This document shows, in pieces, positions 40,718-64,000 of a stretch of DNA of 64,000 nt; the first letter of the stretch is position 1, and each line of letters opens with the position of its first letter. The translations under genes were made by a program, and so were the position numbers. Source of the stretch: Eledone cirrhosa (taxonomy: Eukaryota); the NCBI GenBank assembly GCA_964016885.1, contig OZ024742.1, positions 344,534,001-344,598,000 of the forward strand, given 5' to 3'. The notes under the pieces were generated by a model. It worked only from the letters and a program-made list of their open reading frames with translations, was not told the DNA's origin and ran no database searches.

Positions 40718-41056
40718 ATGGACATGTCACAAACGACAGAAGCCGAGATTTCAGAGCTGCGGGCTATGATCAGAGAGCGGGCTGGTCAAATTAAAGCCCT
40801 CTCGAATCAAGTAGAGAACTTGACCTTTCAAACACACCGGCGACGCTGCAACAATCGATCCAGGCCTTTTCACAGTCGAAGATCCAGTAGTCCCAGGCAA
40901 AATCGTGTGCCTGGAAACCTCTGTTGGTATCACACAAATTTCGGCGCACAGGCATCTAAGTGCAAAGCCCCGTGCTCTTTCCGGAATGCCACCCAGGGCC
41001 TAGCGACGACGTTCACCCCTGGTACTGTAAAGAAAAGTCGTCTATTTTTTTATTAA
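40718..41056 (+). pseudogene. gag: Truncated Gag, duplicate
   Basis: Same translation as 9586-9924. Confidence 0.75.
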
Positions 41057-42341
41057 CGACCAGGCGACAGGCATCCGATACCTCGTTGATACAGGAGCCC
41101 AGGTCAGTGTTATTCCGGTTTCACTGATCTCGGGCAAAAGACACCCAACCCCATCCTTTCTGCAGGCAGTGAACCAATCGTCAATTCCGACTTTCGGGGA
41201 GAAGTCTCTGACCCTCAATTTAGGCCTGAGGCGGCGTTTTCAATGGGTGTTCGTCGTGGCAGACCTGCCGACCCCGATCCTAGGAGCCGATTTTCTCCAC
41301 CACTTCAACCTTCTGGTGGATATGAAGAACCGGAGGCTTATTGACACCACCACAAACCTCACTGTGAGAGGTATATTTACGATGCAATCCACAGTGAGCC
41401 CTGTAATTCGCCAGTCAGAGCCTTCGCGGTACAACGGCAATCTCCAGAAATACCCAGACATCACTCGCCCGGTATTTAAGGATGGTCCAATTAAGCATAG
41501 TGTCACACACCACATCGAGACAAAGGGACCACCCACAGCTGCCCGACCAAGGAGACTGCCTCCAGACCGATTGAGAATCGCCAAGCAGGAGTTCCAACAC
41601 ATGCTGGACCTCGGAATCATTCGCCCTTCCTCCAGCAACTGGTCTGCACCCCTACACCTTGTTCCAAAAAAAAACGAGAATGATTGGCGACCATGTGGGG
41701 ATTATCGTGCACTTAACAATTCTACAGTGCCCGATAATTACCCTGTACCTCACCTGCACGATTTTTCTGCCTCTCTGCAAGGCGCACGTATCTTTTCCAA
41801 GGTAGATCTGGTGCGTGCATATAACCAGATACCTATGGAGCCTGCAGACATTCCGGAGACCGCAATCACAACACCGTTCGGTTTATTCGAATTCCTGCAA
41901 ATGCCGTTCGGTCTGCGCAACGCTGCACAAACTTTTCAGCGGTTCATTGACACCGTGTTACGCGATCTACCCTTCGTATACGCGTATATTGACGACGTAC
42001 TGGTGTCAAGTGCTTCCGAGAATGAACACGAGAAGCACTTAGATCTCCTTTTCCGACGTTTGGCTGAGTACGGTATCATCATCAACCACAGCAAGTGCCT
42101 TCTCGGCGTTCCTTCACTGTCCTTTCTCGGGCACATCATCGATAAATACGGCATTCGTCCACTTCCCGAGAAAGTAGAAGCTATCCGCAGTTTTCCCGCA
42201 CCTACATCACTTCGGAAACTGCGTGAATTCCTCGGTCTGGTGAATTTTTATAGGCGGTTCATTCCTCATTGTTCCGACGCAGCCAGACTCCTCACGGACC
42301 TTCTTCGTAACCGGACTCGCAAAACGAAGAGATCACTCTAA
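41055..42341 (+). pseudogene. pol: Pol protease + RT, duplicate
   Basis: Same translation as 9923-11209. Confidence 0.93.
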
Positions 42342-42379
42342 GCGAGGAAGAATTAACATCTTTTAACCGCCTGAAGGAA

Positions 42380-44110
42380 ATGTTGGCAAACGCTTCCATG
42401 CTCGTTTTCCCCTGGTCTGGCGCTCCTCTTTCGCTGCTAGTGGACGCATCAGACACGGGGGTTGGAGGCGTTCTACAACAATATGTCGACGGCGTGTGGC
42501 AACCCTTATCCTTCTTTTCTAAGCGGTTGCAACCGGCAGAAACGAAATACAGTACCTTTGGCCGCGAACTCTTGGCAACCTATCTTTCGGTTAAGCATTT
42601 TCGGCACTTGCTCGAACGATTAGATTTCGTGATTTACACGGACCATAAACCACTAGTTTATGCGTTCCGTACCAAACCTGATCGACATTCACCGAGAGAA
42701 CTCCAACACCTGGATTTTGTCTCCCAATATTCAACTGATATTCGGCATATCAAGGGATCAGACAACGTAGCAGCCGACGCCCTGTCCCGAATCCAGCTGA
42801 ACGCAATACATGTGCATTCAGGCATCGACCTTCAACAAATCGCAGCTGACCAAGAGACTGACGAAGAGTTTATGAAACTCCGAGATTCGCCATCTCTCAA
42901 GTTTCAGCAAGTTCCCATTCCTTCTTCTCCGGGACAAATTTGGTGCGACCTTTCTACCGGTCATGAACGACCGTACGTACCACAGATGCATCGTCGACAA
43001 GTTTTTTCTGCTTTACACTGCGTGTCTCACCCGGGAATCCGGGCTACACAGAAACTTATCTCTGCTCGTTTTGTGTGGACTAACATTAACAAGGACGTGT
43101 GCGACTGGTCCAGGAGCTGCATTGCCTGCCAGAAAGCCAAAGTCCACAGACACATCAAAACTCCACTCGGCACATTCGCGCAACCTGATGCACGTTTTCA
43201 TCATGTGCATATCGACATCGTCGGACCTCTACCACCATCACAGAACTACACACACTTGCTCACCTGCATCGATCGATTTTCTCGTTGGCCTGAGGCTTTT
43301 CCCGTAAATGATACCTCAGCAGAAACAGTCGCTAAAACTTTGGTTTTACACTGGGTATCACGTTATGGCGCCCCAGCGAAGATAACAACGGACAGAGGAC
43401 GCCAATTTGACTCTCACCTCTTCAGAGAACTGACTCGCCTGTTAGGATGTAAACACATCCGCACGACAGCTTATCACCCGCAAGCTAATGGTCTCGTAGA
43501 AAGATTCCATCGCCAATTGAAAGCTGCAATAAAAGCATATCCAGACAAGACACACCGGTTTGAATACCTACCACTCATCCTTCTGGGCATTCGTTCCACC
43601 GTTAAGGAGGAATTCGGACACACACCTGCAGAATTAGTCTACGGCACCACCCTGGTTCTACCTGGTCAGATGGCTGCTCCCATCTCTCCTCAGGATGTTC
43701 CAGACCCAGGATCATACGTACACCGTCTTCGACAATATATGTCTCATCTTGCTCCGGCAAGCACCCGTCAACAGAACACGGCCACACACGTACCTTCAGA
43801 CATTGATGATTGGACACACGTTTTCGTTCGAAACAACACCATCTCAGCTCATCTTCGACCTCCATATTCTGGCCCTTATCGTGTTCTAAAAAAATATCCG
43901 AAATATTTTATTCTCGATCTAGATGGTAAACAGAATTCTGTCAGCGTGGACAGATTAAAAAAAGCCATCATGGATACTGTTACAGTCTCTACACCAGAAA
44001 CTCAAACAGATTGCTGTCCCAGCGAGCCACCTGTTTCATCTCCAGTCACGAGAAGCGGACGACGCGTCCATTGGCCCGCAAAGTTGGCACAATATGTGAA
44101 TTACCGTTAA
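42380..44110 (+). pseudogene. pol: Pol RNase H + integrase, duplicate
   Basis: Same translation as 11248-12978. Confidence 0.95.
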
Positions 44111-45504
44111 CCTCAAGTGAGTTTCTTAATCACTCTTCGTGCAAAACATTTCCATTTTTCTTGTGTTTACTATTTCCAGTTTCAAATACAATGAACTTTC
44201 TGCTTGAACAATTGCAATTTTTAGTGACCATGTGCTCATGTCACGAAGAACATTATTTATTATGAACATAAACACTATTTAAGAACAAACATTGTGTATA
44301 TCATTGTGTATAACATTTTTTTTTCTTCTTTCTCTTGTTTTGCAAAATTTGTATTTTTCTTGTTCTGTAACATTGATTGTGTAATTGCCATAATTTTTAT
44401 ATACATACAAGGCGTGTACATATTCTGTTTTTCATGCACACTACAAAACCACATTTGTTTCACCTTTTTGTTCATACACTGAGCAATAGATATTTGTGTC
44501 CCTCTAACTCTTACACTACAAAATGTTTTCTCTTTGATCACGCATTTCACAAATCACAACATCAAAACACTGGCCTTCTGTTTTCACGTACACATTCACT
44601 CAATAGCTCGAGAATGCCTCGCTATTTTTTACCACATGCATTCGCTCAAGTCATATGCTGTGGAGCAAACTGTTACTTTTAGGCAGCATGTTTACGGCCA
44701 TTCAGTTCACACATTACAGTTATCTTCACTGCCCAGTTAGACTTTTTGTCACGCAATTCACAGGCAGCTCAACCGAAATTGCAACAGGCTCATTCATCAC
44801 GCCTGCATAAATCTGGTCAAAGTCATTTTATAGTTTATTTCTTTTTTCTCTTCCTGACACACACATCTTGCCATATCATCTCTACATCGACTCTGTCCTG
44901 TACTCGATGATCACAAAATTTCACAACGTGCTGGACAATCCTGGGGCTATTGCCATGACAAATGCACCACTGGCCCATTACTATACGATATTTCGCTCTT
45001 TTGTTGTACAAAAGAACTGGAAGAGGGCTAATGTACAGCCACCGGAAATAACAGCTGTGAAATATACAGCGCCATCTACCTGTTAGCTAGCTACTCAACG
45101 TGAAACAAAAGAACCCTTAGAACCTACCAGAATAAACGCCTACACATCGACTAAACAACAAAGGATTGTTCCTGTATAAATAGAGTGGTTCCTAACACTT
45201 TCGCCAGTCGACTTTTGGCAGAGTCAGCTAGCGCATCGTTGTTCCTTTACTCTGCCACGCTTTGTCACTCACACACGCATTGCCTTGTACCCCGTATCGT
45301 TGCTTCATGTGAAAATAAATAGCTGATCGAATTTACATCTCGCCTTGCTTCGTCCTTTCAACCTGTGCTTTCGTCTGTCCATCCTCAACAGTTCTTTTAA
45401 GGGCTATCTTCATATCTGATCAGACCGTATGCGATAACAGTCCTTCTAAGAACTATTCTCGGATCTGATCAGAAGTAGTGACTAGACTGACCAACTAGTG
45501 TCGC

Positions 45505-45545
<41 letters not shown>

Positions 45546-45576
45546 GTGTGTGTGTGTGTATATGTATACATGTATA

Positions 45577-45617
<41 letters not shown>

Positions 45618-45744
45618 CTTATTCATTTATACAGCTCCAACCGGGATTGATTGAAGCATATTCTATATTACATATACGATTGGCATTTTCCAGCCCGATT
45701 AGTTGAGCACTCTACAGTTTTCAGGAATTTAACCAACATACACC

Positions 45745-46445
45745 ATGGACCTTTATGAATTGGATTATTCAATCAAAAATATACCTACTCCTTCCAACAC
45801 AACTTATACCAAAATGCTTATAGATAAAATCGAACAAGTCGTTAAAAGAATGAGATGGAAGGCAATGGTTTACGATGGACTATTCAATGCTGATACCAAT
45901 GATTGTTTTGACATAAAATCTCGTAAATATCCACCTAGAATTAAAGACATGGCCAACTTCGAATTAGACCTTGTTAATTTAATTAGTGATATCAAATTTC
46001 GTAAGTACAATAATAACTTTCAAACTAAACTGTCTAACGATATTTCTAATTTAAAAAATTCTACAAACACCTTTGTTCTTTCTGATAAAACTAAAAATCT
46101 CTTTGAAGTATTTTGTATAACCAACTTTTAACTAATAGTATCACCAACAAATATCAATTAACTAATAATAATACCTACAATACTATTAATAAAGAAGCTA
46201 AAGAACTAGCTAGTTCTTTAAAAATAGACAACCGGATTGAAAGCCTAGCTAAGCGTAAAGAATATATTACCCTTAAAGACCATAAATTAGACTTTACTAA
46301 TCGACCTAGTTGTAGACTGATTAACCCGGCTAAATCCGAAGTTGGCCTTGCAAGTAAAAAAATCTTAAGAAAAATAATTCTCCAAATTATAACTAAGACT
46401 GACCTATCACAGTGGCTAAATACTTCCTCTTTTGTACAACTTTAA
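45745..46445 (+). pseudogene. Second Penelope ORF N-terminal fragment, duplicate
   Basis: Copy of 14613-15313. Confidence 0.85.
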
Positions 46446-49400
46446 CCATTGATGAAAGACGAATTGGCGGCGAAAAAATACTCTGTGTCGCCAATTCGTC
46501 CACAAACTACACCTTCTTCCCCACCTACATGGGTAAAAAACCCCAGAGAATATGGATAACCACCATCACCCCAAACATAAACTACTGGTGGTTACTAACC
46601 GGTTTCCTCAATTTAGACGAGGACAACCTCATTTCAATAGGAAAGGCATCCGGCGACGCGTTCAGTGGAACGAGTATCGAAGTTCTGACACAAATAAGGC
46701 CAGAACGTATCGCCCAAATCCCTGAGCGCGTCATGCTGGATGACCGTACCCACCTCAACATTATTGTGGAGGGTAGGCGTCCCTCCTGTTACCTCTGTGG
46801 CAATAGAGGTCACCTGAGGGTTGCCTGTCCCCAGCTCACACAGAAAAAAACACTGCTACCAACACCAACACCACCCCAACAACAACAAAATCGACCACAA
46901 CAACAACAAAAACCAACACCACCACAACAACAACAACAACAAACACGTGAAAAAACAACACAGAATACTGTCCCATCCAACCCCTCCCCACCCAAAACAA
47001 ATACAAAAACACACACACCGCAAACACTACCAGAAAACATACCCCTCCCACCCAACAAGGAAGACGAACCCCTTTCGTCGCAAGACGAAAAAGATCCCCT
47101 CCAAACAGTAAAAAGAAAGAAGAGGAGGCGCACCACAGACACACTTGTTAACTTTTACCCTCCCCAAGAGAACACAAACTATATACAAACCACCCCTCCC
47201 CGTCAAACAACACTAACTGCTACGCAAAAAAAGACCTTACAATATACATACATGAACACAGACAACAAAGAACTACTGAAAACAATTTCATCAAACCCTT
47301 CGGTCCAAACTGAAGGGCCTAACCTTATAACTGCTGTGGGACTACCTCATTTAAAAATGATTAAAGTCCCAATGAACCTTTATAAAACACTGAAAATAAA
47401 TTTCACGGAGGACGTGCCCCCCCCCCCTGCGCCAACCCAATCATCCGCGTCCTCCTAAAAAATTTCACCCCACCCCACCCAGACACCCACTCAACCACAA
47501 ATACTCCAACCCCACAACACACTGATGCCCCTACACTTCCACAAACCACCACCCCACCCAACAACCCATCCCCAACCAGCATGGAAATTGAGCGGCCCGC
47601 TTCCCGGGACGCAGAGAGGTAAGTGCCTTTCCTCCTTACCACCAACATGGCTGTGCTAAGAGTAGGGTGTCTAAATGCGCGTGGCCTGGGCTCATCTTGG
47701 AAGCAAGCAATGCTTCTAAATGATGTCAGGTCACGATCTATAAATGTGATGGTTATCTGCGAGGCCCGGATCAGCAACATGCGACAGCTAGCCCCCACCT
47801 TTGACGACTTTGAGATGCACGCATCTCTCTGTCAGCCCGGAGGTGGGGTTGGGTTGTCGTTCTACTGCAAAAACATCTGGGTCTTGCCACACAGATAGTT
47901 CACTTGGACCCAGGGGGTCGACTAGTGGTGCTGGACCTTGGCAGTGGTGAAGGTGGAGCCTTTAGGCTGGTAGCCGCATATGCCCCTTTTGGGACAGAGC
48001 GGCCCGACTTTTTCCAGCGTCTGGAGTCTTTTCTAGGGACGTCCCGTTCCCTGCTTTTAGTGGGGGACTAGAATGGTATCCTGGATGCACGTTGGTTCTA
48101 TGCAGGGGCATGTCCCGATAGAGAGGGGTGCAACAGCCTCAAGGGGTTACACGGCCGATTTGACCTGGCCGATAGATTTCGACTAGATTTTCCGACGGTG
48201 CCAACCTTGTCTTGGTAAAATCGCAGCGGATCATCTAGGTCGTACCTAGATAGGTTTTTAGTTAGAAATAAGGACAGGGTCTTTTTAAGTTGTCCAGAAA
48301 TGCTCATGGTTGGCTATTCAGACCACAAGTTGGTGACCTGCATGGTCAACCTTGATAGAACGCATAGACAGGGCCCCGGTTACTGGAAGCTCAACTTGTC
48401 CTTGCCGGCAAGTAGAGCTTACAGGGATCGGATTAGTACGTTAGTTAAGGAACGGTTGACTGGAGCGATCGTCAACAGCAGGTGGTGGGTATCTCTAAAG
48501 AGAGAGATTAGAGTAGTCTCGATAGAATTTAGTAAGGTTCTAGCTGCGGATAGGAATAGGAAGGAAAGGGAGCTAATAGATAGAGTAGAAGAGGCAATTA
48601 GAAGCGGCGACGTGGCCAGAGTGCTAGCGTCGAGAACGGCTTTGAGCCAGTTTTTCGACGCGAAGCACGAAGGCTGCGTTGTCCGAAGTAAAATACGTGC
48701 TCTATGGAACGAGGGGACCAAAGCTGTTAGCTGGGCCCGCGTGACAGAGGCCAAGAGTGGTACTAAATCCACCATCCGGTCTTTGCGAGACCAGGATGGA
48801 CGGGCGATCCTTGAGCCTAGGCAGATGTGTGAGGCCTTTCAAAGGCACTTTGCCCGACTGTTCGGGAGGGGCGGGGAGACGGTTGGGGATGTGGACTTCG
48901 GTCCATACCTCGACGGCCTGCCGCGTCTCTCGGACAGGGAGGCGAAGTCCTGCGAGGAGCCGATTTCGGCCGCTGAGATAGAAGACGTGCTGAGCCAATG
49001 CGGCAAAACGCAAATCCACGGGTCTCGATGGTCTTCCATACGAATTATATCTAGCTATGCCGGACTTGTTCCCCGATCTCCTCGAGGCGGTCTACTGCAA
49101 CTGGCAACAGAACAGGAGAATTCCCTGTACTGTGACCAAGGGCGTAGTCACGCTAGTGAGGAAGGACGAGAACAAGGGGGACGAAATAAGTAACTTCAGG
49201 CCCATAACTCTGCTAAATACAGAGTTACGGATTTTGGCCAAGGTGCTAGCAAAGAGGTTGGTGCTTGTCGTGGGCAACATGGTGGGATATGCGTAGACAT
49301 GTGCTATCCCGTCCAGGTCCATCCATGACAACCTCCACCTCATGCGATACATCATAGCGAGGGTTTGGAACGAACCCGGCTTTGGTGGGGCTCTGATCAA

Positions 49401-51325
49401 CTTGGATCAATCTAAGGCATTCGATAGGGTCGACCATTATTACCTGGATGCGGTGCTAGCGGTGGCAGGCTTCGGACCCGTTTTCAGGGGCTGGATCACT
49501 GCTATGCACAGCAGCCGCATCTGCTCTAGGGTCAAGGTGAACGGCTACCTCTCGGAGCGGTTCAAAATCGCGCGGTCCATCCGACAAGGGTGCCCTCTCT
49601 CCTCCCTTCTGTATGTGTTGACTCTCGAGCCACTACTGCGGAAGTTGGAGTTGTTGCAGGGCATCCCTTTGGAACCGGGATTGCGGAAAGCGGTGTCGGC
49701 CTACGCCTATGATGTGACAGTAATGGTGTCGACGGCCTCCGAATTCGGAGCGATCGGCACCTTACTGGAGGAGTACGAAAGGTTCACAGGGGCTAAGCTG
49801 AACCGGGACAAGTCGATCGGTTTGCAACTCGGCACGTGGAGGGGCAGACCGATGTCCTCCGATGGCGTCGTCGGACGCTGGACGGAGGGCCCGGTGAAGT
49901 TGCTCGGGGTCTGGTTCGGACCAGACCTCCAGGTGGAGAAGAACTGGGCGGAGGTTACGTACAGGGTGTTTGCACTGACCCAAAAGTGGGCCAGATGCAA
50001 ACTATCCCTGAAAGATCGTGCGTAGGTGGCGAACACCTATATAGCGTCCGTCATCTACTACCGCCTGACCGTAGTGCCTTGCCCAAGGGAAAACCTCGCC
50101 AAGATGGAGCGCGCGCTCTTCCAATTCCTTTGGAAGAGGCGGGCTCCCTTGGTGAGGAGATCCATCTGCTGTCAACACCCTTCGAAAGGAGGGCTGGGGA
50201 TGCCGTGGCTAATGATGCGTAAACACGCATTAAGACTACGGCACCTCCACGTATTCCTCACCGGTCAACCGGTATGGGCCTCGTTTGTGAGACGAACCTT
50301 TCCCAGACTCGTCTCACTCACCGAGCTGCAATCCTGGGTCAAGCAAAGACCGAGAAAACTGGGCGTCTGGCACACTGAGTGTGCCCAGGCGCTCACCGCC
50401 CTCTGGCAGGCGGATCCGGATCAGTGGAGACTCCACCGCAACATTCTATAGAGGGCTGGTACGCAGCAGGTGCGACGACGCCCTCGGAGAAGCCCTAGAC
50501 ATGGAGGAAGACGAACTGGCCAGCCTGTTCGGTAGGACATTCAGCCCGGGACCTATGGACAACTTCCAGAAGTCCCTGGCCTGGCAGTGCTACCGAAGGG
50601 CTCTACCTGTTCGAGAAAAGCTCTACAGACACGGGCGCCCGGGTAGGGACCCCGCCAAAAAGATCTGTCCCAGATGCGTGTGCGACGAGGAAACCGTTGC
50701 ACACACATTGGTACACTGCTCGGGCGTAGTCGACCTGTGAGGCTATGTCGAACAACTGCTGTCAAGGGTGGGACCGATCCGGTTGACCACTGAGTCTATT
50801 GTAATGATCAAGCCGCCTCCCCCCTTCAAAGATGGAGGAGAGGCGGTGTTTCTGTGCCTAATAGCCATGGTGAAAGAAGTTGTATGGTGGACGCGTCTGA
50901 AAGGACTGAGGTCAGGCACCTTTCTCTCTGGCCAACAACTGGTCCGTTTCTTCCGATATCATTTCGGAAGAAGGATCAGGATGGAGAGAGATGTGCTCCA
51001 CCCCAGTCGTTATTATGAAAGGTGGGTGAAAGTGGCGAGAATGGCCCGTGTGAATGGGCCTTCTCTTTACATAAGCCTGTAGGTGGAAAAGAGGAAGGAA
51101 CGAGGGAGCACCCCTCTCTGTGCTCCTGAGGAGAAGGGTTGCACACTTTTTTCGGGGGTGTGTGCGACCCCCCAAGGCGCCTCCTCTCTATTGAGGATTT
51201 TGTTATAAATTTTATTTTTTGTTACATTTTATTTTATTTTTATATTTTGTTATTGCCTCCTCCTTATTGAGGACGCCTTGTTTTGTAAACTCCCCCCATT
51301 GTACTGGTGGCAAATTAAAGAAACA
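46437..51325 (+). mobile_element. Tx1/L1-clade LINE with intact 3' end (decayed ORF1 and ORF2)
   Basis: Continues past the junction through KGGLGMP and the zinc finger CPRCVCDEETVAHTLVHC to a stop at 51082, then a 3' UTR ending ATTAAAGAAAC. Confidence 0.92.
47647..51082 (+). pseudogene. LINE ORF2 (APE-RT-zinc finger), disrupted
   Basis: Fragments in several frames, from MAVLRVGCLNARGL to ...GPSLYISL. Confidence 0.9.
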
Positions 51326-51775
51326 TATCTTTTTTGTAATTGATCTTTGGGATGCTTCAACTTTCATGATACTTTGTTTCGTGTGGGGAGACCACAGTGG
51401 ACAACAGTATTCAGGGTGGGGTCAGGCAAAAGTGGAGAAGAGAAGGATAACAGTGTGGATATCTCTCGACTGGAAGGTTCTGAGAATCCAGCAACACATT
51501 CTGCGGGCCATGTCAACATTGGTGTTTATATGAATGGCCCAGCTTAAGTTGTTGTCCACAATTACTCCCAAGTCTCTGATGTTATTGGGTGCCACGAGAG
51601 TTTCACCTGAAGGAAGAGATTATGGTAATTTCAGGGTATCATTTTTTCCAAAGTGGATTAACTCAACCTTATCGTCATTCAACAGTATACTGTTCTTTTC
51701 TGCCTATTGGATAGCAGCCAATAGGTTTGACTGAAAGCAAGTCCGGTCACTCACCTCATTGATGACCGTTTGGAG
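51326..51775 (-). pseudogene. CR1/L2-like LINE RT C-terminal fragment
   Basis: Minus-strand translation RDLGVIVDNNLSW..HI....EYCCPLWSPH....KVEASQR, with stops. Confidence 0.8.
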
Positions 51776-51841
51776 TAATAATACCTTATATAGTAATAAT
51801 AAATGTGAAGACTAAAATCCGAAGTGGGCTCGACAAGATTA

Positions 51842-52753
51842 TCTATATATATAAAACTGAGGATGTCTGTGTATGTGTGAGTTTGAATCCCTAAAACTCG
51901 AGAAACATCCAACCGACCGTTTTCAAACTTTACACATGCAATACTTATGTTTCAGGAAGTGTTCTGAGCAGGAACAAATTCAAATTTTCAATGCCCTAGG
52001 GACCGCATTAGGCAATTTAGCGATCTCTCTCTATAATTCTTAGTCTTTCTCTTTTTAGATAGATACATACATATAACGTCGCGCCCTTGTAATATCTGTC
52101 TGTATGTATGGCTGTCTGCATTACGTCACTTCCCTGAGGATGTGTGTGTGTCTGTGTCTCTGAGTTTGAATCCCTAAAACTCGAGAAGTACCCAACCTAT
52201 TTTATTCAAACTTTGCATGTGTATTACTTATGTTTCTGGGAGTGTTATGCACATAAACAATTCTACTTTTTGATCTCCTAAGGCCCGCATTAGGTTAAAA
52301 ACTGCGTTTTTGAAGCTTTTTATAGGTTTTTGAGGCGTTACGTCAGACCGATTTCCTTGAAAATGTAACTATGTATTAGTCTCTTCTTCATACCGTGAGC
52401 AAAGAATATCCACCTTTTTTTATGGCCTAGGGCCCGCATTAGGTGAAAAACTTCATTTTTTCAGCTTTTTAGGGCTTTTTGGAGGCGTTACGTCTAGCTT
52501 ATTTTCCCGAAATTTAAAGGCATATTATGCACATAAAAAAATTTATTTTCTTGATCCCTAGGGCCCGCATTAGGTAAAAACCTGCATTTTTCCTGCTTCA
52601 TCGAGGAAAATCTTAAAAATTATCCAGCCATCAGGGTATTCGGTTTATTTTCTTTACATATTGTCCTTGCATGCAGTTTTTCCACGATTAGGTCTGATGG
52701 CGGCCCGCGTGCCAAAATACCTTATCCCGTGCAACGCCGGGTACCACTGCTAG
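51842..52753 (+). mobile_element. Non-autonomous Helitron-like element
   Basis: 5' TCTATATATATAAAAC; 3' hairpin CCCGTGCAACGCCGGG followed by CTAG. Internal repeats: GAGTTTGAATCCCTAAAACTCGAGAA x2, CTAGGGCCCGCATTAGG-like x4. Confidence 0.75.
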
Positions 52754-52995
52754 CATATATATAAACCCGCAGAGCAAATTTTCAGAAGATCCCGTTAAGG
52801 GTGAAAGTTGCGATTCTTTGCTTAAACATTAATCTGTTATTTTAATGTATATATATATATGCAGAGGTTATATTTAATTTGTTGGGATTCAACAAGCTTA
52901 AAAATTTTTTATAACTGATATAAAGCACTCAACAGATTAGTGGAGTAAATATACAGTATATTAATCAATGGAAACTATATTTATAAAACCATAAT

Positions 52996-53061
52996 TATTT
53001 TCTTATATATATTTCAAGGGCAACCAGGGTAAATTATGGTGCGCTTTCATCAGATAAAATA
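52996..53061 (-). ncRNA. Minimal hammerhead ribozyme, intact core
   Basis: TATTTTAT-CTGATGA-AAGCGCACC..GGTTGCCCTT-GAAAT-ATAT-ATA|AGAAAATA. Confidence 0.85.
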
Positions 53062-53193
53062 CAGATTTGTTTTATAAATAAATATTGATCTACCCGGAAT
53101 AAAGACAACCTCAACTGTTGAAATTCGCGAATTTCAACCGTTGAGGTTGTCTTTTTTCCGGATACGTCAATATTTATTTATAAAACAAAACTG

Positions 53194-53259
53194 TATTTTA
53201 TCTGATGAAAGCGCACCATAACTTACTTTGGTTGCCCTTAAAATATATATAATAAAATA
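53194..53259 (+). ncRNA. Hammerhead copy with G12A substitution (probably inactive)
   Basis: Same fold as 52996-53061 but AAAA replaces GAAA at 53240. Confidence 0.7.
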
Positions 53260-53687
53260 ATTATGGTTTTATAAGTATAGTTTCCATTTATTCATATATT
53301 GTATGTATATATATATATATTATAATTGAATATAAGAGAGAGATAAAAACAGATATAAACAAAAATGTGCGTTATTTTATATTTGCATGCTATTCAGTCT
53401 TCTGAGATACTTAGAAGTGGAGGGATTACTAATTTTACACCCACAGATGAACAAAGAACTGGTAATTTATTACTTTAAATTGAGTCTGACAAACCATATT
53501 GTTAATAGTTAGTATTTTTTCACCCTAGCGAACTTGGTCCCCTACAATTTGAACGCACATACAGTATGTATATATCTGTGTTTATCTCTCTTTTATATTC
53601 AATTCAATTACACGGCCCAGAAACACTTCTTTCTTTGAGCTATTTAATTGTAAGAGACTATTTTGAGTTTCTAACTCAATATATACC

Positions 53688-53771
<84 letters not shown>

Positions 53772-53873
53772 GTATTGAAGTTTCCGTTCAAAATTGAAAA
53801 GGTCATAGGAGTGAAGAGTGCTCTATGTAAGTACCAGAGCTAAAATTTAATGTATAATAAACAATACAATATA

Positions 53874-53949
53874 ATTACCTCATTACCAGAGGTTTCCCGA
53901 ATAAGACAAATACAAAAAACGTCCTCATTCGTTCATCGGACAAGGCAAT
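53874..53949 (-). ncRNA. Type I hammerhead variant (CCGAUGA core)
   Basis: ATTGCCTTGT-CCGATGA-aCGAATGAGGAC..GTCTTATTCGg-GAAACC-TCT-GGTA|ATGAGGTAAT; 10-bp stem I with 3 G-U pairs. Confidence 0.8.
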
Positions 53950-54710
53950 TTATAACATAGTGAAATATTTGAAAAATCTCCCCAAGAAAGGCAAAAGTTT
54001 AACGGGCAAAAAAATATATAAATAAAAGTAATGCAAGAGATATATAAAAAATAAGTAAATATAGTTAGGGTATGTGTATAAATGTGTGTATATTCACTCA
54101 CAAATGTACATATGTGTGTATGTACAAATGCCTGTGTATAGTGAAAATGTCTGCGTAAGTACATATATGAGGGCAAGCATATCAGTGTATGTGTGACCAC
54201 AAATACGTATATAATATAAGTTGAAAAAGAAATTGTAAGATAATATAGTTAACATACATCCAGATTCAGGTAGTAAATATATACACATACAAGTATGAAA
54301 GCACCCGTATAAACACACAGACACGCGCGATCACACATATGCGAATAATATAGAGGGAAGGGAGTGTATTAGTCAAAGGAGTGTCAGTCTGAGGCTCGAT
54401 ACATGTATAAAAATGAAACAATATATGAGAATGAAAAAATTTTTTTAATCAAAGAGAAAGTAAGATGGAGGGGTTATCAATTATAAATTAACACTAGAAA
54501 AAAAGAAAACAAACATAGGTTCGTACACACACATATATATATATATAAATATATAAGTAAGATGTATGGTAGGTCGTATGTGAATCGCGATGATCACGTC
54601 TGACCTACCAAATATGTGACGGTAGCTAGTTAAGCTCTATGCGTATACGCAGAGCAGAAATATTAGTGAACAAGAACAAAGGAACAATTATGACATTATA
54701 ACAAATTTAT

Positions 54711-54757
54711 TGCCGACAGCCGTTTCGTCCGACCACATGGTGGGACTTTTCAAGGCA
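54711..54757 (-). ncRNA. Minimal hammerhead, U3-A8 covariant core (UUGAAAA)
   Basis: TGCC-TTGAAAA-GTCC(caccatgtggtc)GGAC-GAAAC-GGCT-GTC|GGCA. Confidence 0.82.
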
Positions 54758-55945
54758 TACAACATGTGACTGTAAGGTCATTATCTACATCAACGTATCA
54801 CTCAAGGCTAGCAGTTTGAAATTGTGGTATACATCAGCAGCTCGGCTTGTATAGTTGGGGTCTATATTCTAAGGGGGCTCTTTTATATTAGTTGTCGGGG
54901 TCAGGGATTGAAGGTTAAAAATTAGATAATATATAATTTACGCATTAACAGTAAACTAAAAGACTTGGGGTCCCGTAGAAGCACCTTAAATCCCTCAATA
55001 AGTGCATAAAGTTTACAGGCTCCAATAAACCTACTAAACTAGAAGAAATTAAGAGGCTAATAAAATAAAAAATAAAAATATAAAGTTTCCCTAAAAAAAT
55101 ATATAAAGTTTCCTATGAAAATCCTTCGAGAGAAAAAAGTTTTTTCCGAAAGAAAAAAACTTTCTTCCCCCGAGATCACGTTTACAAATTTCAGAAAACT
55201 TACGAAGTTTTGATATTCCCTACTAAGTTGAAAGAAACTAATCAATTAAAGGTTAATTCAAAGAGCCTTCTATAGTTCTCTCAGAAAAGGCCCCTTTAAT
55301 ATTTTTAATAGGAACCTCCTCCGAGAGACCCTTCGAAGAATTAAAATTTTAGAGAGCCTTTAAGGATATATATAAAAACGAATTGAGGAAAACTATACAT
55401 TAAAAGTTAAAAATTACGGTATTTGGGATATCCGAGGAATTTTCAAAGGGCTGCTTCAGCAGATACAACTTAGGCATAATAGATACAATAATTTAAGTAA
55501 TTTAAGTAATTTAATTAATTTAATTAGGGAGCAATTCAAAGAGTTTATCAAGTTGGGCAAGATTAAAGAGAGTGGTAAATAAGAAAATACATAAGCAAAA
55601 AGACAATAATTATAAAATGTATTTTTAAGAAGGTATAAGGTAGCTTCAGTAATCTAACAATGTATTATCACAAAAAATTATTATAAAATTATTGATACAG
55701 GATTAACAAAGACATAATAATATATATTCCTGCCTAATTAACAAGTAATCAAAACACTATTAACAGTCAGGCAAAATTAGCTCAGGGATATCCCGCGCTC
55801 GGATACTTTACACACATACAGCAACACATAGGATTAGCACAGACACAATGGTATATTCCTGCCTAATTAACAAACAATCGATTAACAATTGATGGTCAAG
55901 AAAATGTACTCAGGGATATCCCGCGCACGGATATTTACATACATA

Positions 55946-58448
55946 TTTAGCAGTATTGGTTGTAGATGTTATCGCCACTTTAGCAGGGTGGTAGAATCAG
56001 TGGTCGTTAGTTGCCAGTGTGGTAAGTGATAGTATCCTCGTTGGATTATCTTGTTGACATAGACGTGAGGGAAGGTCCCTCGATCTATTTACCATCTATT
56101 TACAATATTCCTTTCGTCAGGTCGCCAATTCCAGCAGCATGGATTAAAGATGTCATTGAGACAAGAGTAACATAATAACGACTTCAACCGCAGTAATTAG
56201 AGATGAAAGGTTTGTTTATTTATATGGTTGAAGTTACAGATAAAAAGAGGTTACATTAGGGAATGTGCCATTGCGCCGTTAAGCCGGCGAGGCTAGTTGT
56301 GCAATATCTCACTGTTACATTATGCGTGTTGCTGGCTCGAAGTTTCTGGTACCTGAGAGAGATTCTTCAAATCTTCGCGGGGAATTTCTTCCTCAGGGCG
56401 CGTAGGGTTACATCCTCTTCTACTGGCGCTGATTGGCTGAACTGAGCCAAATCACGCACAGAGAATGTATGTGAGCCCGCGGAATGTAGGTCACTACATC
56501 ACCTCCAACCAGATTTTCAGCCGAAAATCGATAACGAAGAAACCAAGGACCCACATATTATTAAATCAGCAAGAACAAATGCTGAAAGAGCACATCAGTG
56601 AAAAAATAATTGAGCAGAAGGTTGCATGCAAGAACAAAAAATTAGGCGCTACGGGCCGTGTTGAGCCGCTGTGTCAAATGACCAATTGTTTTGTTGTTTA
56701 TACGTGACCGCCAAAGGTCTAACAAAAAAACGGATAAAGTCTGACATGGGCGAAGTTGCCGTTCTTGCATTAAATGTTAATGGTAAGCGTTGTACCAGTA
56801 GCTGTGAACGAAGCTAGTATGGTAGTTTACCAGTGCTGGCGAGAAAATGATGGCCGCCAGATGTATTGTCGAATGTGCTGTGGAGCCAGGAAAAAAATGG
56901 CTGGTTGCTTTGTAAAGAACAAAAGGCAAGTTTAATCTGTAGGTGGGTTGCAGTGTAAATTCCATAATTCGGGCGAATCCACAGAAGTGGCCGAAATGCT
57001 AACAAGTCCAGTTCAATTTCTTGCTTTCCCAGCGAGTCGGGCAAAAACAACAAGACGGATGGCCGTCATGGACGATCAGTGTGCAACGAGATGCGAAGCT
57101 GTTTGAGTTCAGCTGCAATGTATTCTCGTGTTGCGGTGCCTGTTTGAATCCAGTGGATTAAGCTCTGTGAGCTGCTAGCATGTGACAGCATCTCAACCAG
57201 GTGAAAAGGGACTCGCAGAATATTACGTTTGAAGAACATATACCAAGAACAACATGTTGGTGTGTGATAAAGAAAATGTGTGCATATGCAGGCATGTAAA
57301 ACAGCAAAGAATGTGAATGAACAAAAACCATGAGCAAGAAAATAGCAAAAGAGCACAAAACAAGTAAATGCATTCTACTATGTGAATGTAACAAACTGAT
57401 AATTCAAAGTCAATCTAGGGGAGCAGAGAAATTGCTCAATAATTTCAAAGTTTTTCAAAGTCAAATAGTTCACACATCACCAGTGTACAGACACTAGTTC
57501 TGTCCGAAAACTGAAAAAGAAGTATGTTAATGCCATTAGGGGTTAGATGTATGGTGTTTTTGTGAGATTTCGTGGCCATTTGACCGTCCCGCCACACGGT
57601 AGTGTTGCTTATTGTTAAAGTAATGTCAAAGAATCTTCTGTAGAGTAGGAGTCACCAAATATGGCAGTCACGTCTGACGCCATAATGGTGAGAAAACTAC
57701 TGTCTCAATTTCTCGCGTCCCTGTGGTAACGAGACAGAAGGTATGGTGGTTGCGTCGGTAAAGTTACAAGCCGTTTTGAAATTTCCGATGTGTGGTGGTT
57801 GGCGTCGGTAAGGTTATGAAGCTGCCACTCACTGTTCCCTGTATTGGTCAGTGGTTAAACAACGCTGTCGCTGCTGCTGTCATTGTTGTTGTCAAGCGTA
57901 GCCATGATATGTCGGTAGCCATCTTGAAATGTTTTCGTGGCGAAAAAGTTTTTGAAATACTGCTAATTTTTCAAAAATCTTAAAAGGAATATTCTGGATT
58001 TTCGCAAGTTGCGACGTGGCAATACAAGTTAAACTGAATGAATAAGGGCTGCGTGATATTCTTACGTCGGGGTCACCACTTTAGCAGTATTAGTTATAGA
58101 TGTTATCGAGATACGAGTTACATAATAATTATTTCAACAGCAGAAATTAGAGATGAAAGGTTTGTTTATTTATATGGTTGAAGTTACAGATAAAAAGAGG
58201 TTACATTAGGGAATGTGCCATTGCGCCGTTAAGCCGGCGAGGCTAGTGGTGCAATATCTCACTGTTACATTATGCGTGTTGCTGGCTCGAAGTTTCTGGT
58301 ACCTGAGAGAGATTCTTCAAATCTTCGCGGGGAATTTCTTCCTCAGGGCGCGTAGGGTTACATCCTCTTCTACTGGCGCTGATTGGCTGAACTGAGCCAA
58401 ATCACGCACAGAGAATGTATGTGAGCCCGCGGAATGTAGGTCACTACA
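55946..58448 (-). mobile_element. Non-autonomous LTR retrotransposon (TRIM/LARD-like), 2.5 kb
   Basis: LTRs 58080-58448 and 55946-56498 (TGTAG...CTAAA); PBS at 58064-58078; purine-rich GGTTGGAGGTGA at 56499-56510; 4-bp TSD CATA; no long ORF. Confidence 0.88.
58064..58078 (-). promoter_or_regulatory. tRNA-Trp primer-binding site
   Basis: TGGTGACCCCGACGT, complementary to the 3' end of eukaryotic tRNA-Trp. Confidence 0.88.
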
Positions 58449-59795
58449 CATACAACAGATTGAACAGTACTGGTGACCGTGTGGGCGCGATATCCATTAT
58501 GCGTATGTAGTCATCTGCATAGCTCCAGGCACAGCTGGTGTTGTTTAAAAGTTCATAGTTCACGGATCAACTGGGATTCACTATCAGATGCGTGGACTCT
58601 CTGGGAGATGTACTTGTGGTTCCAATAGCTAGTGGTTGCTGGGTGTGGTCCTTTCGATCTTTTAGTTTCAGGGGTTGCACGCTTTCGGCCGGTTCTAAGT
58701 CCAAGGTCTCACTACATAGGATGTATTGGTCTACATGCCATATTGGTAAAAAAACCAGTGTGGATTTGACTGGGGTGGTATATTACGAACTCCAAGCCCA
58801 CACGCGGCTGGTCAAAAGCGAAGGGCTGTCCCCTCTTTGTTTGCTGTATGAGTCGGTTCCAGCTTAGATGGTGGTCGTGTTATCCATATTCCGTCAGCCC
58901 TGTATATTCAAGACAGATCAGGGTATATATTTGCGGGTATGGTCCGGCGTCTAAGTTATCCAGAGGGTCTCACTTGTGGTACTTTCAAGTTCGCATGTCA
59001 TCTCCCGGTTAAGACTGCGCATGCTCGGTGAATCTCATGCATGGAATCTTAGGGTATCATATTACACGGGGTGACTAGCAGAAAATATACATTCTATGCT
59101 ATCGCGCACGCGCTGGCCTGTGGCTACGACCATGTCCAGTCTCGGGTAGTAGCAGACAGCAGGTAGACCAGCTAGACACACCCCTGTTCAAGGGGCACAA
59201 CCCCTAACTTATCGAGTGGTCAGACTTCAAGGGAGTCAACTCTCCAAGCCCATTAAGTCGACTGTGGTAAAATACAAAAATTCCTATTAGTAAAGAACTA
59301 ATCACTGATAATAAAGAACTAACTCAAAAGAATGGGGAGGGGCATCTATTTGGGCGGGGGTTTACTAAGGGAGGGGGTGGGGTGAGTGGTTATAGTCAGG
59401 GAGCGGCCGCCATACTGGGTGTTTTGTTACTGTTTCCCTGGGCATGTTCTCGAGTTTGTTGACATACATCTCCGACTGCACCTTCCCATATTAGTCTACG
59501 TGGGTCCAGGCACTCACAATGTCCTACATCGCAGGCATCAGCTGCCCCCAGGGTGCCCAGCAACAATGTTGCTTCTACGGGACCCCAAGTCTTTTAGTTT
59601 ACTGTTAATGCGTAAATTATATATTATCTAATTTTTAACCTTCAATTCCTGACCCCGACAACTAATATAAAAGAGCCCCCTTAGAATATAGACCCCAACT
59701 ATACAAGCCGAGCTGCTGATGTATACCACAATTTCAAACTGCTAGCCTTGAGTGATACGTTGATGTAGATAATGACCTTACAGTCACATGTTGTA

Positions 59796-59842
59796 TGCCT
59801 TGAAAAGTCCCACCATGTGGTCGGACGAAACGGCTGTCGGCA
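59796..59842 (+). ncRNA. Minimal hammerhead, U3-A8 covariant core
   Basis: Identical to the minus-strand copy at 54711-54757; GUC cleavage triplet at 59836-59838. Confidence 0.82.
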
Positions 59843-61167
59843 ATAAACTTGTTATAATGTCATAATTGTTCCTTTGTTCTTTTTCACTAATATAAATATA
59901 TATATATATATAAAGACGTACAGACAAAAGCACATACATGCGTACATACATACAGAGGCGCGCATACATACACACGAAGCACATATATATATATCGGCAC
60001 ATGTATATCTAATCACACGTACGTACGCGATTATATATATATATATACATATACACACATACATACATACATATACACATATATTCACCCATACACACAC
60101 ACACGTATATATAAGTATGTAAAAAACATAGATATAAAAACACACATACACACACATATATACACACACACGCACACATACGGAGACGTTCGTATACATA
60201 TACAGAACGCATACACACACATACACACTCACACGCATAGATACAAATTATAAACCAGTCGTATGAATAAATGAGTACAAATATAAAAGCGGCTGCGAAA
60301 CAACAGAATATATCTGGAGTTGAAAACGCAGGTGACATGTTATCAGGTAATGAAAGAAAATGGGGAAGTAAAATGTGGAATTGTGAAGATATTAGGTAAG
60401 TGAATCAAAGTAGGGGGGGGTGTCACAGGTGGATGTGAAGTAAAAATAAAAATAAAAATAAAAATAAAAATAAAAATAAAGTTAAAAATGAAAGTAAATC
60501 AGAAAGAGAAGTCTGTAAAGAGGATAATTTAAGGAAAGTGAAGAACAAGAGTTTATGGAGGATAAGTATCTGAAAGTGAGTTAAGTTTATATGAGCTGGA
60601 AAGCAAGTGTGATTACGTGTGTGGGCAACTGGTGAAAATTTCTGTTTTTGCACTTAGGCAGGTTATTGGTGATTTAAGGTTCTGTAAAATCCAATATTTT
60701 TCACTTATGCAGAGTGTGCATCTTCTTGTTCCTCTTGCATATTCTTTCGATTGGTTCAAAATTGACCAATCCAATTCTTATAGTATCTATGTGTTCTAGG
60801 GAAATGTTTATCTAAGAGCTCTAGGAATTTTTTGCCTACATTAGTTTTAACTGAATCTGTATGTTAACTATATTATCTTACAATTTCTTTTTCAACTTAT
60901 ATTATATACGTATTTGTGGTCACACATACACTGATATGCTTGCTCTCATATATGTACTTACGCACACATTTTCACTATACACATGCATTTGTACATACAC
61001 ACATATGTACATTTGTGAGTGAATATACACACATTTATACACATACCCTAACTATATTTACTTATATTTTTATATATCTCTTGCATTACTTTTATTTATA
61101 TATTTTTTTGGCCGTTAAACTTTTGCCTTTCTTGAGGAGATTTTTCAAATATTTCACTATGTTTTAA

Positions 61168-61243
61168 ATTGCCTTGTCCGATGAACGAATGAGGACGTTT
61201 TTTGTATTCGTCTTATTCTGGAAACCTCTGGTAATGAGGTAAT
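61168..61243 (+). ncRNA. Type I hammerhead variant (CCGAUGA core)
   Basis: Inverted partner of 53874-53949; GUA triplet at 61231-61233. Confidence 0.78.
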
Positions 61244-61320
61244 TATATTGTATTCTTTATTATACATTATATATATATATATGTGTGTGAGAAAAACCAC
61301 AGACCCTCCATCTCAACTCT

Positions 61321-61358
61321 ACTTTTGAAAAGCAGAAGAACTGCGAACCCGGTAGAGG
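61321..61358 (+). ncRNA. Degenerate UUGAAAA hammerhead copy (GAAA>GAAC, weakened stem I)
   Basis: ACTT-TTGAAAA-GCAG(aagaa)CTGC-GAAC-CCGG-TA-GAGG. Confidence 0.5.
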
Positions 61359-61421
61359 AACCAAATAAATAAATATATATATATTTTTTAAAATAAGACT
61401 CCAGTTGCATTTTCGATTTCA

Positions 61422-61511
<90 letters not shown>

Positions 61512-61628
61512 ACATCTTGTTTCAGACTAGCTATTTAAATGGTAAGAGCCCCCGATCTTTTAAAATATACCTCTACTCTACTATCCCAAGTATCTAGTAC
61601 TCTGTTGAGTAATGGTTTAAGTAGTTCG

Positions 61629-61664
<36 letters not shown>

Positions 61665-62090
61665 GGGAGACATACACACACGCACACACACATATATATG
61701 TGTTTATGCGTGTGTGTGTGTATAGGGTGGTGAAAAATACCTATAATTATACTTTATAGTAATAGATAATAATTGAATACATCGAGGTGTATATCCCTGG
61801 AGACGCTGCAATATGGAGAAACTTGCCGGGGAATCGAACCACGGATTTCTCGTAGTCTGGACGAGAGTATTTTGCCACTACGCCAAAGGGTCTCTGGAGT
61901 AAATTACGATTTTCTAAAAGATGTAAAAGTGTAGCTAGAAAAGTAAACCAATTTGGTTGACTTACGAATCAGTGGGAAATTTGAGATGCGTGGTTCGATT
62001 CCCCGGAGACGTCTCTGTCTATTGATCTGTCTCAAGAATGACTTTACCCGATTTCAAATATCATATATAGTTATCAACTATTATTAACAT

Positions 62091-62280
62091 GGCGATGGAT
62101 TGGCAGTATCGGTAGATGGTCGGACGCCATGCTTTGCAGCATAGAGTTACGGCCCTTTACGGTCTGAGTTTAAATCCCGCTGAGGTTAACTTTTTCTTTC
62201 ATCCTTATGGGTTCGATAAAATAAAGGACCAGTAATGCACTGAGATAATTGCTGGTCTTGTGCCAAAAATAGAAACAATT
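62091..62280 (+). mobile_element. tRNA-derived SINE (resembles octopus SINE families)
   Basis: A-box-like TGGCAGTATCGG, B-box-like GAGTTTAAATC, body CTTTCATCCTT..GATAAAATAAAG.ACCAGTAATGCACTG. Confidence 0.75.
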
Positions 62281-62288
62281 GTAAACAT

Positions 62289-62475
62289 GGCGGCGGATTG
62301 GCCGTATCGGTAGAGGGTCTCACGCCATGATTTGCAGCATAGAGGTACGGCCCTTTACAGTCCGAGTTCAAATCTGGCCGAGGTTAATTTTGCCTTTCAT
62401 CCTTACGGGGTAGATAAAATAAAGTACCAGTAATACAGTACGGTATTTGATGGCGTTGTGCCAATAGTAGGAACA
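62289..62475 (+). mobile_element. tRNA-derived SINE, tandem second copy
   Basis: Homologous to 62091-62280; B box GAGTTCAAATC. Confidence 0.75.
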
Positions 62476-62635
62476 TATATTAACATTATTTTCGTTGGGG
62501 AGAATACATTTTTCCATTCCGTCCTCTTCTCACTCTCCATCTTGTCATTTCATCTTTTATTTCTCCTTCTATCGTCTGATGAAGGACTAGTGACCAAAAC
62601 GTTAATACACTTTTCCTATTATATCAAGCATTAAA

Positions 62636-62855
62636 GAGTGTTGGACTGGTAGTATCGGTAGAGCGTCGAACATCATGTTTTGCGACATATAGTTACGGCT
62701 CTTTAGGTTCTGCGTTCAAATCACGCCGAGGTTAGCTTTGACTTTCATCCTTACAGGGTCGATAAAGCAAAGTACCTGTAATGCACTGGGCGAATACAAT
62801 TGAATTTTCCTCCTCTAACAAGTGTTGGTTTTGTGTCAAAATCAGAAACCATTAT
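62636..62855 (+). mobile_element. tRNA-derived SINE, third copy
   Basis: GTTCAAATCACGCCGAGG...TTTCATCCTTACAGGGTCGATAAA. Confidence 0.75.
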
Positions 62856-62943
62856 TTCAAGCATTAAACTAATATATTTCTCTATTGTACTGTGTCGATT
62901 GCTTTGTTATTTCTGTTTACTTCTTACATCCATACACACATGA

Positions 62944-62987
<44 letters not shown>

Positions 62988-63105
62988 CTGAGCTCTTGTC
63001 ATTTCACAGCTAGTTTCAGACTGGATCGAGCTCTTGAAACGGCAATAGCTCAGCTGTTGGGCCTCGATGTTTTTTAATATTTTCATACACTACAATACTA
63101 CAATC

Positions 63106-63150
<45 letters not shown>

Positions 63151-63218
63151 AAAAAGGGATGAAATCGAAAATGCAACTGAAGTCTTATTTTTTTTAAAAT
63201 ATATATATTTATTTGGTT

Positions 63219-63256
63219 CCTTTACCGGTTTCGCAGTTCTTCTGCTTTTCAAAAGG
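63219..63256 (-). ncRNA. 38-nt minimal hammerhead, U3-A8 core, palindromic stem III
   Basis: CCTT-TTGAAAA-GCAG(aagaa)CTGC-GAAA-CCGG-TA|AAGG. Confidence 0.78.
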
Positions 63257-63291
63257 TGAGTTGAGATGGAGGGTCTGTGGTTTTTCTCACA

Positions 63292-63333
<42 letters not shown>

Positions 63334-63364
63334 ACATTATATATATATAATCTACACCTCCCCT

Positions 63365-63438
<74 letters not shown>

Positions 63439-63611
63439 AGGAGTCGACAAAACAGCAGTACAAAAGGTCTTATCAGTTTCGCACTTTAAATGGAATATAG
63501 CTGTATGCGTGTGCCTGTGTGTTTCTGGACTGTGTGTGTGTTTGTGTGTATGCCTGTCTGGTTCTATGTGTTTGGAATGTGTATATGTTTGTGTGTGTCT
63601 GTCTGTCCGGG

Positions 63612-63657
<46 letters not shown>

Positions 63658-64000
63658 AGTATGTGTGTGTATACAATGCATGTGCATACATATACACTGA
63701 TTACTTCTCATACATTGAACTTTTCGACAATTGCTATCAATATGCTTCAGTACAGCTCTCTAATGAGATATTGCCTGGCTGTCCTGAATATTTAATACAT
63801 TTTATTAGGCCGCAGTTCTGAGAACTTAATGCAGAAAAAAATAATTAACAAGCAGTATCCTCAATGGAATGTTCAATTAAGTATTGGTGTTAAGTGGTCT
63901 GTGAATAATCGACGTTCAAAGAAAAATAATGAAGTCACTTCAAATATTTTTTCAATATCTGTCTTACAAACTCTTGTAAATTATTGGTTATTGCTTGTGA

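Follow-up and report, generated by a model that had tools for sequence, protein, structure and literature searches.

Natural hammerhead ribozymes with a U3-A8 pair were reported in the survey of Perreault et al. (2011; PMC3088659), where such cores are said to be active in vitro. About 1,300 U3-A8 hits were later recorded in Penelope-like elements (PLEs) of Schistosoma mansoni (Cervera and De la Pena, 2014; PMC4209133), and a PLE-linked Schistosoma entry in the supplement of that study carries the heptamer UUGAAAA. According to Craig et al. (2021; PMC8557442), (TA)n serves as an insertion target for PLEs of the Hydra clade. Internal starts of PLE reverse transcription are described as giving rise to a tail, and cleavage by PLE hammerheads as protein assisted and not required for insertion in vitro (PMC11167929). 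Here we analyze a 64,000-nucleotide (nt) stretch of Eledone cirrhosa DNA (contig OZ024742.1, positions 344,534,001 to 344,598,000; hereafter the window), which is gap-free, of animal type, and rich in repeats. Our subject is a unit bounded by inverted arms that bear U3-A8 hammerhead-like motifs (the inner unit). It is nested in another inverted-pair element (the outer PLE), where it occupies a (TA)n run.

We interpret the inner unit as probably a 5'-truncated PLE insertion whose 3' end was copied again in reverse. Recopying of the 3' end in reverse at the 5' side would yield two near-identical arms, each with a hammerhead-like motif, and the arms indeed form a 99% complementary inverted pair of 324 nt each that differs at only 3 positions (54671, 54705, and 54906). 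Subtraction of a nested long terminal repeat (LTR) element leaves 2,727 bp without a recognizable open reading frame (ORF), in agreement with the roughly 2.7-kb ORF-less unit of a first-pass annotation made from the sequence. Two other elements of the window, the outer PLE and the one at 2801-6111, have the same layout and are backed by ORF evidence. Membership of the inner unit among PLEs rests on layout and motif, and these two lines uphold the Penelope link suspected in the first-pass annotation. Since it has the PLE layout but no recognizable ORF, we class it as PLE derived, neither an autonomous PLE nor a retrozyme. The features are collected in the table.

Each arm carries the same 47-nt motif, letter for letter (59796-59842 on the plus strand and 54711-54757 on the minus strand), and its details are as first described. 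The core is UUGAAAA (U3 U4 G5 A6 A7 A8 A9), stem I (UGCC/GGCA) and stem II (GUCC/GGAC) have four perfect pairs each, a GAAA element stands between stem II and stem III, and C17 of a GUC site falls at 59838 (+) and 54715 (-). The 3-8 pair (U-A), U4 G5 A6 A9, G12 A13 A14 and A15.1-U16.1 with GAAA, and GUC as the NUH site are those of a type I hammerhead core, and the helices have the type I order with 4, 4, and 2 bp and a palindromic helix III. The 2 bp of stem III lie inside ACGGCUGU, which is self-complementary by way of G-U pairs (duplex energy, -9.7 kcal/mol). With its covarying 3-8 pair, the motif does escape a CUGANGA search. A strict descriptor admitting either C3-G8 or U3-A8 recovered three matches in the window, namely, the two arms and a motif at 63252 (-), and none in 285,486,704 bases of dinucleotide shuffles of 50101-64000. 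The whole Rfam model Hammerhead_1 (RF00163), whose consensus core is C3-G8, aligns to both arms (20.1 bits; E = 0.75). The predicted cut site is 55 nt from the arm end and the hammerhead thus lies within the terminal repeat near the 3' end, and the motif of the outer PLE has the same outward orientation, 39 nt from its arm end.

In folding models, the double-hammerhead dimer (-36.3 kcal/mol) nearly reaches the cofold minimum (-37.0 kcal/mol) and lies well under two active monomers (-10.9 kcal/mol each), which is the pattern of a hammerhead of the dimer type. Luense et al. reportedly described cleavage of PLE hammerheads as dimers in 2017. Two features of the minimal PLE hammerhead are also present: the palindromic 15.2-16.2/loop 3 and the G10.1-C11.1 pair. 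The dimer cannot come from the two motifs of the locus within one transcript, because they are on opposite strands; they are 2.6 kb apart once the LTR element is subtracted.

Whether the double compensatory change speaks for selection, as the first-pass annotation proposed, has a divided answer. That the two copies are identical says little by itself, and nothing about selection: over their full length of 324 positions the arms have just 3 differences, and they were likely made in one insertion. Given that rate, the probability of no change in 47 nt is 0.65. The best local evidence for a meaningful core is cross-family covariation, in that the unrelated 63252 family has the same core with other stems. 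Among the best-supported 40 of 755 differences in placed public sequence (see below), none falls at core positions or within the 47-nt motif, though fixed neighbors (54671 and 54777) do figure among the 40; this suggests that U3-A8 is probably the majority state of the family.

The polarity of the unit was read from public sequence. Four of the 10 listed runs (X1, X5, X7, and X8) were placed on 54600-59890, and statements on single pieces and differences concern 24 listed of 2,384 pieces and the best-supported 40 of 755 differences. The body is multicopy in organism A, with 30 of 30 bins covered in both X1 and X8, and pieces also occur in organisms B and D (15/30 and 14/30 bins, respectively). 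In terms of Logan contig depth, which is not a copy number, X1 gave 13,257 and 22,111 at the ends that bear the hammerheads, between 3,989 and 6,171 in three bins inside the left arm, 1,164 to 2,931 over 58494-59378, and 526 adjoining the right arm, so that depth just inside the two arms differs by about 8- to 12-fold. The left inner junction is crossed by an organism B contig and by X1 and X8 reads, which have an indel at 54987; among the pieces listed, none spans the right junction (59569/59570). The fall in depth from the left arm to the right junction suggests a minus-strand orientation, with the 3' end at the left, a 5' truncation at 59569, and an inverted copy as the right arm. At 54770 and 54777, both arms read C and G, whereas T and A prevail in the placed sequence, and these shared letters fit one template and one event. 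Reads also join 54642 and 54665 in reverse to the interior positions 59077 and 59073 in other copies, as would be expected if another locus had a shorter inverted copy or if this site had received two insertions. A short hairpin (59559-59573) is centered on the inner junction of the right arm, a possible fold-back homology at the inversion point.

The bounds first given for the unit, 54660 to 59893, hold for the arms, but the unit itself probably begins about 104 nt further left. The position of an identical 13-nt direct repeat in (TA)n on both sides suggests a true left end at 54556 and a one-sided 104-nt tail.

Table. Features of the inner unit and of the element that surrounds it (positions in the window)
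Feature	Coordinates	Strand	Basis or remark
Left 13-nt repeat copy	54543-54555		Candidate target-site duplication, low complexity, tentative
Right 13-nt repeat copy	59890-59902		Candidate target-site duplication
Probable 3' extension (tail), left end only, two hairpins on folding	54556-54659	-	Between arm and candidate duplication; assignment inferred
Left arm, likely sense 3' end (pLTR type)	54660-54983	-	Organism B contig crosses inner junction, 54866-55040
Right arm, likely the element's 3' end copied in reverse, 5' truncated	59570-59893	+	Arm comparison and read depth
Type I hammerhead-like motif, left arm; U3-A8 core at 54753-54747	54711-54757	-	Predicted cut after 54715
Type I hammerhead-like motif, right arm; U3-A8 core at 59800-59806	59796-59842	+	Predicted cut after 59838
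3' part of body, noncoding, T rich on minus strand, multicopy	54984-55945	-	
5' part of body, 49% GC, multicopy, no recognizable ORF, lowest depth beside right arm	58453-59569	-	Likely truncation point, 59569
Two-copy repeat, period of 131 nt, copies 79% alike	55699-55945		Copy 2 split by LTR element
Nested LTR element, no recognizable ORF	55946-58448	-	CATA duplication on both sides
Outer PLE, left arm, with hammerhead-like motif (core CCGAUGA, long stems) at 53939	53845-54272	-	
Outer PLE, inverted arm, with same CCGAUGA motif at 61179	60848-61272	+	
Outer PLE, two remnants of C-terminal part of PLE ORF, Hydra clade like	60619-60854	-	

The interior was searched for coding remnants by several routes. 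No ORF with the Penelope reverse transcriptase (RT) plus GIY-YIG was found in the 2.1-kb interior by searches sensitive mainly to the Hydra-like clade, an absence expected for a truncated or non-autonomous copy. The first-pass annotation had named an ordinary decayed Penelope ORF as the result that would undo its reading; the translated search recovered none, with a sensitivity confined to one Penelope clade. Pfam searches with 24 read-through frames returned nothing meaningful (2 of 24 frames had any match), with no tyrosine recombinase or RT remnant, and three matches with E values of 0.2 to 0.24 were dismissed as chance. This Pfam blank is weak, in that the intact-looking control ORF 3432-5339 was also missed by Pfam. 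Three sense frames compared with PDB sequences gave 0, 0, and 2 matches at E values of 0.8 to 0.9; a word search with one sense frame gave none, itself weak evidence; and comparison of the interior with phage records gave no match. A tblastn search with 204 PLE-like proteins gave a best E value of 0.01, with hits scattered across frames and strands, and was rejected, and YADD and IY..YTG strings, RT- and GIY-YIG-like by eye, gained no support. In the sense frames of 58453-59569, no more than 71 amino acids (aa) are free of stops, and the noncoding sequence 5' of the motif amounts to at least 2.3 kb.

In comparison with described systems, the closest likeness in the hammerhead itself is to the pLTR hammerheads of Cercyon PLEs (PMC4209133), which share with the inner unit the type I form, the U3-A8 pair, a short helix I, a palindromic helix III, G10.1-C11.1, and the dimer-type design; opposite-strand hammerhead pairs are mentioned for these PLEs as well. 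They differ from it in having a bulged base between 9 and 10.1 and a helix II of 7 to 8 bp, against 4 (extendable) here, and their motifs are 100 to 700 bp apart, whereas those of the inner unit are separated by 2.6 kb and have no ORF tied to them. The 4-nt loop of helix III is unlike that of Cercyon and resembles insect, rotifer, and shrimp variants (PMC4209133). The Perreault survey (PMC3088659) is a general one; it records the same covariation and is silent on activity in this dimer-type context.

In overall layout, the inner unit matches the inverted insertions of EN+ PLEs, including the Hydra clade (PMC8557442), in that a 5'-truncated copy lies inverted beside the 5' end and the repeat contains a hammerhead, with a probable tail on one side and a candidate (TA)n target as further likenesses, and the outer PLE and ORF 3432-5339 belong to the same CxCX5C linker-type family as that clade. 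It departs from those elements in lacking an RT/GIY-YIG remnant, in a tail of about 104 nt as opposed to 30 to 40, and in having 2.3 kb or more of noncoding body. The non-LTR retrozymes of animals (preprint of Li et al., 2026; 10.64898/2026.07.22.740005) are likewise noncoding, bear a type I hammerhead, and are proposed to be non-autonomous PLE derivatives. They are, however, short head-to-tail tandem units with a hammerhead each, whereas the inner unit has inverted motifs, a single one per strand, and a body of more than 2 kb; no tandem copy was found in the window.

Since U3-A8 is in print (PMC3088659 and PMC4209133), also in PLEs with the same heptamer, the core is not novel, and the locus presents no new ribozyme class or mechanism. 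A literature search for U3-A8 hammerheads returned only the 2014 study (PMC4209133); the available text of PMC7151607 has nothing on this pair, and the supplement text of PMC8557442 has no match to the 47-nt motif or UUGAAAA as typed, figure-only content lying outside that search. The inner-unit family and a U3-A8 core in a Hydra clade setting may be unrecorded. The window extends the record of natural U3-A8 hammerheads by one host and two repeat families. Within 11 kb it holds four or five PLE-type families with hammerheads, three of them missed by Rfam even below threshold.

By the mechanism that we envisage, a PLE reverse transcriptase-endonuclease, probably acting in trans given the Hydra clade-like elements in the window, would nick the (TA)n run, and target-primed reverse transcription would begin at a point between 55 and about 160 nt 3' of the ribozyme cut. 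Copying would then halt at 59569, and a shorter inverted copy would be set beside it. The motif is predicted to cleave after GUC only as a dimer via the self-complementary stem III, formed by two RNAs or by tandem copies elsewhere, and such cleavage would trim element transcripts. Read-through RNA at the locus would contain one motif and its complement, buried in a 324-bp hairpin.

Several observations weigh against a hammerhead-bearing PLE insertion. There is no Rfam match at the gathering score (34, as against 20.1 bits for the arms), and shuffled sequences fold as well as the monomer does (z = -0.05 to -0.83). The base that is bulged between 9 and 10.1 in minimal PLE hammerheads is absent, with G10.1 directly after A9, and helix II has 4 bp plus 3 beyond an internal loop, short of the 6 to 8 bp of such hammerheads. 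A PLE profile built from relatives of one clade reached at best 1.9 bits on the interior (E = 0.18), and no PLE ORF is tied to the family. The 104-nt tail exceeds the published 30 to 40 bp, the target duplication is of low complexity, and the depth gradient is nonmonotonic and stems chiefly from X1. A reading of the motif as fortuitous or defunct, and not as a hammerhead descendant under selection, could draw on the first two of these points and on the visible decay of other motifs in the window (61326, 62576, and 53203). We regard it as quite improbable in view of the empty 285 Mb of shuffles, the full-length Rfam alignment at both arms, the recurrence of the core in another family and in published hammerheads, and a distance of 55 nt from the arm end that parallels the 39 nt of the outer PLE.

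Long near-perfect inverted ends, the lack of an ORF, and a candidate duplication would also suit a non-autonomous DNA transposon (a foldback element or large miniature inverted-repeat transposable element) moved by cut-and-paste, with 324-bp terminal inverted repeats and a passenger hammerhead taken from a PLE end. This is unlikely: the arms are unequal in inner depth by a factor of about 8 to 12, the pieces listed span the left junction but not the right, one end has an extra 104 nt, and the outer PLE, with the same geometry, is a PLE by its ORF. DIRS elements combine inverted terminal repeats with a one-sided extension and an internal complementary region, and the inner unit has the first two (inverted ends of about 320 bp), together with the opposite-strand joins of 54642/54665 to 59077/59073. 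No match longer than 11 nt exists between ends and interior, however, so the internal complementary region was not found; as no tyrosine recombinase or RT remnant was recovered either, and hammerheads and a candidate duplication fit PLEs, a DIRS-like origin is highly improbable.

With the unit taken as a PLE insertion, the remaining question is whether its family codes for its own enzymes. A non-autonomous family is the likelier branch, because the sequence 5' of the motif is noncoding for 2.3 kb or more, though over all readings it comes to slightly under an even chance. The other branch keeps the insertion route and assumes an autonomous family with a long 3' noncoding region or a decayed ORF of the Neptune, Penelope/Poseidon, or Nematis clade. 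It gains from the noncoding sequence 3' of the ORF in the outer PLE (about 1.3 kb between ORF end and hammerhead) and in the 2801-6111 element (at least 0.77 kb), from the failure of Pfam on ORF 3432-5339, and from a profile that represents one clade. At least 2.3 kb without a match in six frames, the 71-aa limit on stop-free sequence, the unproductive PDB and word searches, and the total length of Hydra elements, generally below 3 kb (PMC8557442), nevertheless tell against it, and we consider it rather unlikely. If non-autonomous, the family would be a multikilobase counterpart to retrozymes, and its copies would allow tests of selection on the 3-8 pair and of the position, with respect to the ribozyme, at which PLE enzymes begin reverse transcription. 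A still wider proposal, which we advance tentatively, is that of an ORF-less non-autonomous Penelope-type family of at least 2.8 kb, with its own U3-A8 dimer hammerhead, moved in trans by Hydra clade elements and present under at least three species labels. Together with the second U3-A8 family, it could form a class of large hammerhead-bearing PLE parasites that are missed by CUGANGA searches and bridge PLEs and retrozymes.

Within the inner unit, the direct repeat first noted with a period of about 130 bp has a period of 131 nt (copies at 55699-55818 and 55830-55945); the second copy continues past the LTR insertion site, and there is no hammerhead in the repeat. The cores of the LTRs (56195-56498 and 58145-58448) differ at 1 of 304 sites. 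LTR retrotransposons have a primer-binding site (PBS) and a polypurine tract at conventional places, by which the parts were assigned: on the minus strand the element starts with TGTAG, a PBS-like TGG lies just inside the right LTR, and a purine-rich tract lies ahead of the left LTR. The left LTR is longer and composite, and extra PBS-like and LTR-end-like pieces at the left end of the element (55946-56195) suggest a composite of two related subfamilies. An empty site is present in X1 as a contig joint that skips 2,507 nt at 55940-58448.

The ORF remnants of the outer PLE match ORF 3432-5339 in tblastn (E = 3e-4 and 0.003) and the PLE profile (E = 7e-13 and 9e-9). A word search with a 54-aa fragment gave none, and phmmer gave 83 matches, 81 of which match the PLE profile. 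Its CCGAUGA motif has C at position 4 in both arms, with 9 to 11 pairs in stem I and a long stem II, and is possibly an inactive or unusual variant. At the left end of this element, there is about 75 nt extra as far as the (TA)n run. The element at 2801-6111 (and 33933-37243) is a 5'-truncated Hydra clade-like PLE with a 635-aa open RT-linker-GIY-YIG frame, and its 3' region recurs in both inverted and direct orientation; the element had no Pfam match and no hammerhead by the descriptors used. Hydra clade marks are the CxCX5C linker in ORF 3432-5339 and RWK and DKT in the piece at 14400-15400, where 14600-15310 (and 45733-46445) holds the N-terminal part of another Hydra clade-like PLE ORF in two frames.

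The second U3-A8 hammerhead-like motif, unrelated to the inner unit apart from its UUGAAAA core, belongs to a short repeat family between microsatellites, whose copies (61286-61400 on the plus strand and 63175-63291 on the minus strand) face each other. Its stems are CCUU/AAGG, GCAG/CUGC, and ACCGGU; the core is intact at 63252 (-) and damaged in GAAA at 61326 (+). A degenerate scan of metagenome contigs for the inner-unit motif had a single match (L001), which we dismiss as chance, as it lies in a bacterial histidine kinase-like ORF and has no stems and no likeness to the window.

Hammerhead-like motifs with a CUGAUGA core occur in each half of AT-rich palindromes without a spacer (52951-53304 and 8762-8959, with a third copy at 8828), where an AU palindrome forms part of stem III, and, in decayed form, at 62576-62610 in a three-copy 198-nt repeat region (62076-62819). 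Another palindrome without a spacer (365 nt; 6542-6906) had no hammerhead. The segments 1-18969 and 31133-50101 are identical over 18,969 nt (100%), 31,132 nt apart, around a tandem array of short units (18968-33871), and represent a very recent duplication or an assembly artifact. An LTR retrotransposon at 9033-14374 (and 40165-45506) encodes protease, RT, RNase H, and integrase in two frames between LTRs that are 96% alike. A LINE-like element with a zinc knuckle, RT-like frames, and zf-RVT, broken into several frames, is found at 15271-18893 and 46403-51082. Finally, a repeat at 51840-52755 has internal direct repeats and a GC hairpin with CTAG at its end and resembles a non-autonomous Helitron in its anatomy.

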